The translations under genes and the position numbers were made by a program. From IMG/VR virus record IMGVR_UViG_3300045988_003641, positions 1 through 64,000 of that record: a DNA stretch of 64,000 bases. One strand, 5' to 3'. Origin of the DNA: a virus. Taxonomy: Duplodnaviria; Heunggongvirae; Uroviricota; Caudoviricetes. The notes under the pieces were generated by a model. It worked only from the letters and a program-made list of their open reading frames with translations. It made no database searches and was not told the origin of the DNA. Shown piece after piece: positions 19,682 to 19,813 of this stretch. Numbering within the stretch: the stretch's first letter is position 1; the number at the start of each line of letters is the position of its first letter.

Positions 19682-19813
19682 CAGAAGACCGTTTACAGCA
19701 AAACTTAAACAATCTATTTCTCCGGTAAAGAAAAGGCGAAGGTTCGATTCCTTCACTCGGCAGATGTCGAGTTGGTGTAATGGTAGCACTTAAGATGATA
19801 AACAACGGTCTGG
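19682..19813 (+). ncRNA. structured element, family copy C, with embedded tRNA-like module (T-arm then acceptor-like helix then D-loop-like segment, permuted order); candidate Y-RNA-like RNA
   Basis: CAGAAGACCG...GGTCTGG frame around GAAGGTTCGATTCCTTC T-arm (19736-19757) and GTCGAGTTGGTGTAATGGTAGCAC. Confidence 0.35.

Follow-up and report, generated by a model that had tools for sequence, protein, structure and literature searches.

The 64,000-nt stretch of DNA analysed in this study (hereafter the window; positions 1 to 64,000 of the IMG/VR virus record IMGVR_UViG_3300045988_003641) originates from a Felix O1-like myovirus (Felixounavirus) and contains 26 tRNA genes, all on the + strand, between positions 18871 and 24437 (predicted by ARAGORN, with which Rfam concurs). 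Our analysis concerns a tRNA-like module with a permuted order of parts, located in the 429-nt spacer between tRNA-Asp (19456-19533) and tRNA-Lys (19963-20038), and the larger element that encloses it, designated C2 (19683-19815, + strand, 133 nt). The spacer is 95-100% identical across approximately 210 phage records and is mostly without an annotated feature among the records listed. C2 itself is present in 251 phage records and, among those listed, is unannotated save for spurious coding sequence or 'tRNA-Thr' calls. Three related elements (A, B and C1) occupy neighbouring positions in the same tRNA array, and a gene for a Ro60-like protein (17290-18705, + strand) ends 166 nt ahead of the first tRNA, approximately 1 kb upstream of C2 and on the same strand. 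Ahead of the array there are two sigma-70-like promoter matches (18724-18752 and 18815-18844, + strand), each agreeing with the consensus at 10 of 12 positions; the next match of this type after 18815 is found at 20213-20241 (11/12 positions). Since the promoter matches lie upstream and no terminator-like site was found on the + strand between 18724 and 20200, the sequence suggests that elements A, B, C1 and C2 are probably co-transcribed with the tRNAs.

C2 consists of an outer stem and an enclosed tRNA-like part, all of whose features are encoded on the + strand. In the minimum free energy (MFE) fold the terminal stem has 8 bp. Its 5' strand (AGACCGUU, 19686-19693), preceded by AGA (RNA start ..AAG), pairs with 19804-19811, i.e. 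with the 3' strand AACGGUCU, which is followed by GGUA (together 19804-19815; RNA end ..CUGG). The UUACAGCAA motif adjoins this stem, within the single-stranded segment UACAGCAA (19694-19701), which is a candidate protein-binding determinant; the 11-nt stretch 19691-19701 reads GUUUACAGCAA. Next comes a tentatively assigned variable-arm-like hairpin, UUUCU-CCGGUAA-AGAAA (19717-19733), which is seen in the MFE fold and is not kept in the orthologues of phages Mordin and HP1. It is followed by a T-arm mimic, GAAGG-TTCGATT-CCTTC (19738-19754), and a closed acceptor-stem mimic, ACUCGGC-AGAU-GUCGAGU (19755-19772), with 7 bp including one G-U pair. The latter is composed of ACTCGGC (19755-19761), the loop AGAT (19762-19765) and GTCGAGT (19766-19772); its third pair is C-G and not the alanine identity pair G3:U70. 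A TG dinucleotide (19773-19774), equivalent to U8 and G9 of tRNA, leads to a D-arm mimic, GTGT-AATGGTA-GCAC (19775-19789).

The first-pass annotation of this DNA had reported a T-arm and an acceptor-3'-like strand lying upstream of an acceptor-5'-like strand and a D-loop-like sequence, and these parts are present on the + strand as it described them. It had also stated that no normal tRNA could be formed here, with which the present data agree: ARAGORN predicts none, and the Rfam tRNA model (RF00005) gives partial matches of 22-24 bits, below its gathering score of 29 bits. A normal, split or intron-containing tRNA was rejected, since neither program found one at C2. The 'tRNA-Thr-GGT' of 129-131 nt, assigned by tRNAscan-SE in some GenBank records, is an artefact that requires an acceptor stem paired at 5 of 7 positions and a very long 'intron'. 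Because it has no anticodon arm, the C2 RNA cannot decode. Structure prediction, proposed as a check and run on 19682-19818, recovered the terminal stem as well as the T-arm, acceptor-like and D-arm helices in the MFE fold; an inner anticodon-stem-like helix of the same fold (CUUAA/UUAAG) was dropped, as it is not kept in phage SUSP2. A strict scan for the module (a perfect T-arm followed in order by a hairpin and a D-arm with GG) produced exactly one match in the window, the chance expectation being 0.04 modules per 64 kb on both strands in first-order Markov simulations.

The outer part of C2 is repeated elsewhere in the array. The pattern AGAAGACC-N5-CAGCAA...GGTCTGG has four matches there (A, B, C1 and C2), while 0.02 would be expected. 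In all four copies the ends pair (AGACC.. with ..GGUCU), the RNA starts with AAG and it ends with CUGG; the tRNA-like insert is found in C2 only. Element A (19041-19113, + strand), between tRNA-Glu and tRNA-Met, has the structure AGAAGACCAA-UUACAGCAA...UUGGUCUGG; element B (19207-19267, + strand) is placed between tRNA-Met and tRNA-Asn, and element C1 (19596-19670, + strand), whose cargo hairpin is conserved across Ounavirinae, lies 12 nt upstream of C2. These scaffold-only RNAs score 16.8, 16.6 and 15.3 bits, respectively, with a scaffold-only model (R2), and their stem-to-stem lengths are 66, 54 and 68 nt, compared with approximately 130 nt for C2.

The upstream open reading frame (ORF 17290-18705) encodes a protein of 471 amino acids, which matches the Pfam families DUF2828 and DUF7788 (a vWA domain) and PHROG 850 ('RNA-binding protein'). 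A phmmer search of PDB sequences with this protein gave no match. An AlphaFold2 model built on 37 homologues reached a pLDDT (predicted local distance difference test) of 88 and a pTM (predicted template modelling score) of 0.87, and when it was compared with the PDB by Foldseek, each of the 11 best matches was a Ro60/TROVE protein, with alignments exceeding 510 columns. Full-length structural matches include 1yvp, 2i91, 2nvo and 9l5y, and sequence identity to the solved Ro60 structures is 11-17%. [quoted passage not shown] The ORF 17290-18705 product is thus predicted by modelling to fold like Ro60, with a helical-repeat ring and a MIDAS vWA domain, and is the putative protein partner of the RNAs described here. 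According to an independent preprint of 2024 (10.1101/2024.10.10.617714), the Felixounavirus Bas63 has a Ro60-like protein, gp130, which is encoded directly upstream of the tRNA genes and counters the Ppl defence; its authors consider it conceivable that certain annotated tRNAs are Y RNAs. Judging from synteny, gp130 would correspond to ORF 17290-18705. The DUF2828 family comprises at least 2,436 proteins in one search, and members are also known from plants and from protist-infecting giant viruses.

The coupling between this gene and the elements was analysed in two sets of contigs encoding relatives of the protein: a viral set of 80 contigs (five from Felixounavirus, one with a protein 47% identical and the remainder 38-45% identical) and a second set of 80 contigs from GTDB genomes or metagenome-assembled genomes (MAGs), with proteins 30-43% identical. 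In the viral set the strict scan revealed permuted modules in 9 loci other than Felixounavirus, two of which are near-identical. All of these modules are on the strand of the gene, apart from one poor match, and none overlaps a tRNA predicted by ARAGORN. In every relative the module is enclosed by a terminal stem of 6-10 bp, whose sequence differs from phage to phage; its 5' strand is followed, after 0-4 nt, by CAGCAA (more rarely CCGCAA, CAGCAG or CAGCAT), and the RNA ends with ..CUG or ..CAG. The terminal stem and CAGCAA are common to the modules though absent from the conditions of the strict scan. When the scaffold alone was searched for in the viral set, 121 matches were found on the strand of the gene and 13 on the opposite one, with 61 of 95 + strand matches placed within 500 nt of the gene (76 loci); the corresponding numbers for the GTDB set are 91 and 18. 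Comparable pairings of element and gene are present in numerous uncultivated phages. Scaffold elements adjoin DUF2828 genes even where there is no tRNA within 1.6 kb (e.g. contig L075). About 40% of them are no longer than 80 nt and have no tRNA-like insert, while others contain different recurrent cargos. The motif is present in 94 non-redundant elements, and all scanned elements carry the 3' C-U-G, in part because the scan demanded CU-G.

A plain MAFFT alignment of 16 elements (A2) was structurally useless and was replaced by alignments fitted to the structure (A3-A5), of which A3 is a module-anchored, N-padded alignment of 13 elements. In A3, 99% of the cells are paired, 21 of 27 pairs have changed on both sides, and the covariation score is 0.94, compared with 0.21 for shuffled and at most 0.14 for slid controls. 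The terminal stem, which was never a scan condition, is 100% paired in the 13 elements, with 7 of its 10 columns covarying; covariation was also recorded in 3 of 5 T-arm pairs, all 8 columns of the acceptor-like stem and 3 of 4 D-arm pairs. Within CAGCA the C, G, C and A never vary. Also invariant are the equivalents of tRNA nucleotides G52, G53, U54, U55, C56, A58, C61 and C62 (GG-UUC-A, CC), as well as those of U8, G10, A14 and one G of the D-loop GG. The pairs include G-U on the + strand and the motif is strand-specific, which points to a structure of RNA rather than of DNA. A covariance model (R1) built from 12 non-Felixounavirus elements, and thus leaving the window out, recovers 19683-19815 as its top match in the window (60.9 bits, E 3.9e-12, all 156 model positions); the next-best matches, of up to 25 bits, are tRNA-tRNA junctions. 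At E<0.01 all 25 R1 matches in the 75 other viral loci are on the strand of the gene, among them the non-seed members L010, L041, L033, L017 and L031, and the same is true of all 8 matches in the GTDB set.

Several scaffold elements of these contigs carry other cargos. In L041 (4734-4833) and L052 (4758-4853) the AG-stem/CAGCAA scaffold contains a tRNA body in the normal order (D-arm, anticodon-like arm, T-arm) and the scaffold stem replaces the acceptor stem, a topology opposite to that of C2; ARAGORN labels the L052 element 'tRNA-Asn(att)'. A recurrent cargo that is not tRNA-like, ..CCUUUCUGGAGGGGAAAGCAAAAACUCGCC.., occupies the scaffold in L009 (4276-4370), L010 (3133-3232), L014 (149-280), L018 (1265-1373; a close variant with two changes) and L028 (4734-4828), and cargos of approximately 160-250 nt are found elsewhere, e.g. 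those ending with GGCAAGCAGAAAAUAAAAUAC in L046, L053, L064 and L070, and with a one-base variant of it in L079. In L118, a MAG contig, a full match to freshwater-1 RNA (1007-1068; RF02979, 82.7 bits, gathering score 72) is located among scaffold elements, 270 nt upstream of the DUF2828 gene, and a tRNA-like gene (796-904) has its anticodon arm replaced by a 51-nt insertion containing CACAGCAAG. Another version of the scaffold, AGGCGC-aNa-CAGCAGC...GCGTCT-G, with the motif CAGCAGC rather than CAGCAA and cargos of approximately 180-205 nt, lies upstream of the DUF2828 gene in contigs of Clostridia and Lachnospiraceae MAGs (L147, L149, L151, L152, L155, L157, L159, L160, L164 and L167).

Within Ounavirinae, the DUF2828 gene, the tRNA array and all four elements occupy the same places in SUSP2 (Suspvirus), in Sf16, Mordin and HP1 (Mooglevirus) and in FO1a (Felix O1), and the C2 orthologues of these three groups score 50-60 bits with R1. 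The T-arm and D-arm are almost constant, while the acceptor-like stem has been swapped twice with its pairing kept: it reads ACTCGGC/agat/GTCGAGT in Felixounavirus, ACACGT/tacg/GCGTGT in SUSP2 and Sf16, and ACCCTTC/gCCAaaca/GAAGGGT in Mordin and HP1. The last of these forms belongs to a group of six independent elements (Mordin/HP1, two in L075, and one each in L052, L041 and L080), in which N-CCA directly follows an exact 7-nt acceptor-like 3' strand and is itself followed by a spacer of 2-7 nt and the 5' strand. This arrangement is the gene-order signature of a permuted tRNA, and it parallels YrlA of M. smegmatis. The C2 of the window also has a 7-bp stem, but its AGAU loop is without CCA, and other members have tetraloops, stems of 3-6 bp or no stem at all (L010, L017). 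Because so many relatives have loops and stems of this kind, a free acceptor end cannot be a general property of the family, although it may matter in some lineages.

The closest known RNAs are those of the YrlA type (RF02553), described from S. Typhimurium and M. smegmatis as well as from 22 phages (Chen et al. 2014, PMC4201824). Their genes lie no more than 4 kb away from Ro60, on its strand, and the RNAs are composed of a 5' Ro-binding motif, V arm, T-arm, acceptor-like stem-loop and D-arm; in the case of M. smegmatis the YrlA stem has 7 bp, and the RNA is cut by RNase P and has CCA added in vivo (PMC4201824). C2 resembles them in the order of its parts (V arm, T-arm, closed acceptor-like stem-loop and D-arm, enclosed by the 5' and 3' ends), in the conservation of tRNA tertiary nucleotides, in being encoded a few kb from, and on one strand with, the gene of a predicted Ro60-type ring protein, and in the presence of several putative Y RNAs per locus. 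The differences concern the partner, which here belongs to Pfam DUF2828/DUF7788 and not to TROVE; the protein-binding module, proposed to be AAG-stem-UUACAGCAA...CUG rather than GNCGAAN0-1G; and the setting, since C2 sits in a phage tRNA array and its scaffold also bears many cargos that are not tRNA-like. The only GNCGAA match in C2 (GGCGAAGG, 19735-19742) was rejected as a chance occurrence, which overlaps the T-stem and is absent from the orthologues of Mordin/HP1 and L003. A phage Ro60 homologue beside phage Y-like RNAs (phiRo60 and Yrl1/Yrl2) is likewise known from the Thermus phage phiLo; in the passages considered here (PMC12135203) these RNAs were found via a CGAA motif, have a stem-bulge-stem layout and are not said to contain a tRNA-like domain, and phiRo60 is a canonical TROVE protein, unlike the DUF2828 protein of the window. 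The phiRo60 structures 9l5y and 9kop are among the best structural matches to the latter.

Circularly permuted tRNA genes reportedly occur in Cyanidioschyzon merolae. As in such genes, and in genes for two-piece transfer-messenger RNA (tmRNA; RF04321), the 3' half of C2 (T-arm plus acceptor 3' strand, to which some relatives add CCA) precedes the 5' half. Unlike permuted tRNA genes, which hold all tRNA parts including the anticodon stem-loop, C2 has the permuted order without an anticodon arm, and no decoding tRNA can be rebuilt from it. A permuted tmRNA was also rejected, as C2 has neither CCA nor G3:U70, 19683-19815 contains no tag frame, and RF04321 gives no match at this place.

Taking these data together, we consider it likely that 19683-19815 encodes a Y-RNA-type non-coding RNA of approximately 130 nt, composed of a terminal module and a tRNA-mimicking effector module. 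The first-pass annotation had offered a tRNA-mimicking domain of a Y-RNA-like molecule as one of its two readings, and this is supported by the YrlA order of parts and by the Ro60-like gene on the same strand. It had missed that gene, as well as a terminal module unlike those of known Y RNAs and the resemblance of this module to the Class I RNAs of Dictyostelium (see below). Our confidence in any specific biochemical output of C2 is much lower than in its Y-RNA-like identity.

According to the mechanism that we propose, the promoters at 18724 and 18815 would drive transcription of the RNA along with the tRNAs, and the maturation enzymes of the flanking tRNAs would excise it. By analogy with Ro60, which binds a conserved stem of Y RNA, the terminal module (the 8-bp stem with ..AAG/CUG.. 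and the single-stranded UUACAGCAA 3' of the 5' strand) would be bound by the ORF 17290-18705 protein. The effector module would mimic the elbow and acceptor arm of tRNA, keeping the nucleotides of the D-loop/T-loop contact, with the terminal stem in place of the anticodon arm. This tRNA-like domain may be handled by tRNA enzymes, and an RNase P nick 5' of G19766 followed by CCA addition is conceivable, as in YrlA of M. smegmatis; it might recruit or occupy a tRNA-recognising factor, or stabilise the RNA. Once assembled with the Ro60-like ring, the RNA could, in the course of infection, either tether the ring to a partner that recognises tRNA or degrades RNA or gate the ring from such a partner. 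The output might be RNA surveillance or counter-defence, by analogy with the tethering of exoribonucleases by complexes of Ro60 and Y RNA, and as is also suggested by the phenotype seen with Bas63. The sibling elements A, B and C1 carry the same terminal module with other cargos.

Several observations weigh against this interpretation. As regards the protein, Pfam TROVE (PF05731) is not among the matches of ORF 17290-18705 at E<=0.01, its similarity to Ro60 is structural and derives from a predicted model, and we infer its link with the RNA from co-location. As regards C2, the folding-energy z-score of the MFE fold is weak (-1.5), and a 15:48 Levitt-type pair, possible in 8 of the 12 elements scored, is impossible in it. 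The Rfam YrlA model gives no match to C2 even at E<=10, and its scores for relatives (39.2, 38.9 and 28.7 bits; E 4e-5, 5e-5 and 0.047) are far below the gathering score of 69; moreover, the GNCGAAN0-1G Ro-binding motif of YrlA is absent from the first 50 nt of C2. Pairing in the T-arm, acceptor-like stem and D-arm was partly a condition of the scan, which leaves the terminal stem as the sole unbiased test of covariation. Finally, R2 holds too little information and performs weakly: E values for A, B and C1 (15-17 bits) are 0.09-0.2, and its top match in the window (50584-50665) has no CAGCAA and is a false positive.

It could also be proposed that C2 gives rise to a two-piece tRNA-like molecule, whose main function would depend on a real acceptor end, with the Ro60-like protein playing a secondary role. 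RNase P would cut in the acceptor-like loop, the 3' strand would be trimmed to, or extended with, CCA, and enzymes or toxins whose targets are tRNA 3' ends or aminoacylation would have the nicked RNA as their substrate, decoy or sensor. [quoted passage not shown] Against this stand the Felixounavirus loop, which is just AGAU, the tetraloops and the short or missing stems (L010, L017) of many relatives, and a third pair that is not G3:U70. We find this explanation unlikely for C2; it overlaps the Y-RNA-type reading, from which it differs only in the action of the effector, and for some of the family it is a genuine possibility.

A more modest role would be that of a punctuation signal, in which the module does nothing except direct RNase P or RNase Z cuts of the tRNA-array transcript, the excised piece being functionless. 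C2 does lie inside a tRNA array without an internal promoter or terminator, and the very stable 148-nt structure directly after it (19814-19961) would need to be released. Such a role leaves unexplained why A, B and C1 have the terminal stem and CAGCAA in common with C2 and why elements adjoin DUF2828 genes that have no tRNA within 1.6 kb (L075), and RNase P does not need the tertiary D-loop/T-loop nucleotides that have nevertheless been kept; we consider it improbable.

Even less support can be given to a DNA-level element, whose inverted termini (AGACC../..GGTCT) would be recombination sites or cassette boundaries moving cargo within tRNA arrays. These termini flank highly variable cargos, and HNH homing endonuclease genes are found within the same arrays, but CAGCAA is strand-specific (121 vs 13), the G-U pairs of the stem become A-C mismatches on the opposite strand, and the stem sequence is different in every phage, unlike a recombinase site. 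This makes a DNA-level function very improbable. Least probable of all, and hardly credible, is a functionless relic, i.e. a decayed tRNA 3' half abutting the next 5' half, or the product of tandem duplication and deletions: true tRNA-tRNA junctions do give partial R1 matches (17-25 bits), the Rfam YrlA model matches a tRNA-His/tRNA-Phe junction (17 bits) and the family may well have originated by this route, but the 'halves' are complementary and their stem covaries, the element is conserved in 246 phage records and across three genera with compensatory replacement of the stem, and the same architecture recurs in unrelated phages, so that of the circularly permuted or disrupted tRNA gene envisaged by the first-pass annotation the gene order stands, while the missing anticodon arm and the conservation and covariation contradict a decayed gene.

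For the Y-RNA-type interpretation it is important to separate what was already known, namely YrlA-type tRNA-mimicking Y RNAs encoded next to TROVE Ro60 genes (phages included) and the Ro60-like fold of the Felixounavirus protein (described in the above-mentioned preprint), from what is new: the probable RNA partners, the distinct terminal module, cargos that are modular, a broad distribution, the variants that encode CCA and the Class I resemblance. No Rfam family covers the phage scaffold RNAs. DUF2828 proteins gain likely RNA partners, which are unannotated RNAs in tRNA spacers rather than the annotated tRNAs guessed in the preprint. tRNA mimicry by Y RNAs appears not to be bound to the TROVE/GNCGAA system, as it recurs with a different (proposed) protein-binding module, and the encoded CCA of some relatives sharpens the question of the role of the tRNA-like domain. 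The scaffold, which carries many cargos in diverse phages, seems to serve as a modular platform for their display; it is often located in tRNA arrays, whose presumed role is to counter defences that target tRNA.

The terminal module resembles the Class I RNAs (RF01414), which are reported to be unique to Dictyostelia (Kjellin et al. 2021, PMC7919456). These RNAs have a total length of approximately 60 nt (42-65), start with AAG and end with CUGU, with G paired to C, and have a terminal 6-bp stem in which pairing and not sequence is conserved; the 5' strand of this stem is adjoined by the 11-nt motif CCUUACAGCAA, in which U3, C6, C9, A10 and A11 are nearly invariant, the remainder being variable (PMC7919456). 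The phage terminal stem is similarly 6-8 bp long and varies in sequence with pairing kept, an 11-nt motif lies directly 3' of its 5' strand, and A, B and C1 are within or close to the usual length (approximately 55-70 nt), with the rest of the RNA variable. The corresponding stretches of C2 (GUUUACAGCAA) and A (AAUUACAGCAA) agree with CCUUACAGCAA at 9 of 11 positions, including all five that are nearly invariant; B and C1 have A at motif position 3, and the window elements carry (G/A)(U/A)UUACAGCAA-like motifs. The exact 11-mer CCUUACAGCAA is found in L118 (661-721), beside the DUF2828 gene, where RF01414 scores 28.1 bits (E 0.003). RF01414 is also the best Rfam family for the spacers of B (24.0 bits, E 0.017) and A (17.5 bits), and for C2 it gives an end-to-end alignment (12.8 bits), in which the tRNA module is handled as an insertion. 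All of these scores (B, A, C2 and L118) are below the gathering score of 41.5, Class I matches arise only in small search spaces or on L118, and an Rfam scan of six viral loci (a 65-kb search) gave no Class I-like match at E<=1.

There are also clear differences. Within the motif, the most conserved U occupies position 4 in phages (81 of 94 elements) and position 3 in Dictyostelia. A precedes AG in 61 of the 94 elements, and outside the window CUG, whose CU-G was imposed by the scan, is followed by A or U. C2 is approximately 130 nt long and its 90-nt tRNA-like insert is unknown in Class I RNAs. The phage elements have bacterial-type promoters and belong to a tRNA operon without a DUSE (Dictyostelium upstream sequence element), which in Class I genes is located approximately 60 nt upstream (PMC7919456). 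The known direct binder of Class I RNA in Dictyostelium is the RRM protein Rnp1A/CIBP; DDB_G0281243, described as 'function unknown', is one of four proteins pulled down with this RNA. We found no literature linking Class I RNAs to Y RNAs or to DUF2828.

Judging from these sequence comparisons, we regard a true relationship between the phage RNAs and the dictyostelid Class I RNAs, through common descent or a common type of partner, as possible, though on balance doubtful. The two groups may then share the definition (A)AG-stem-UUACAGCAA...stem-CUG(U), with a DUF2828-type Ro60-like protein as the putative partner. If this is true, Class I RNAs would correspond to Y RNAs in amoebae, DUF2828 proteins would form a second, widespread branch of Ro60 ribonucleoproteins, and their partner RNAs would present exchangeable cargos, i.e. 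tRNA mimics in permuted or normal order and other recurrent modules. The match offers a testable hypothesis on the partner and mechanism of an abundant class of eukaryotic RNA, whose function has been open since 2004.

The surroundings of C2 contain further features on the + strand. The structure directly 3' of it (19814-19961) has a closing stem of approximately 24 bp and an MFE of -48.3 kcal/mol (z -6.4; 0 of 200 shuffles as stable), without an Rfam match or the CAGCAA scaffold. Two neighbouring hairpins (19534-19594; MFE -20.7, z -3.1) separate tRNA-Asp from C1. A tRNA detected by Rfam (20446-20524, 31.7 bits) and missed by ARAGORN has a counterpart annotated as tRNA-Arg-TCT in REP5 and Sf16. 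A tmRNA-tag-like frame, ANDNVFLAVA with two stops (20291-20326), lies approximately 50 nt downstream of the promoter match at 20213-20241; sub-threshold Rfam matches to tmRNA_permuted (29.2 bits, 20139-20323) and tmRNA (16 bits, 20255-20444) are found near it, and ARAGORN predicts no tmRNA in the region 20213-20445. A full tmRNA (70.9 bits) is present in the related contig L060, 1.2 kb downstream of its own DUF2828 gene. HNH homing endonuclease genes are inserted at differing sites in the tRNA arrays of Ounavirinae, as exemplified by the window (20762-21166, + strand), L084 (3554-3901) and L087 (3054-3539 and 4027-4419).

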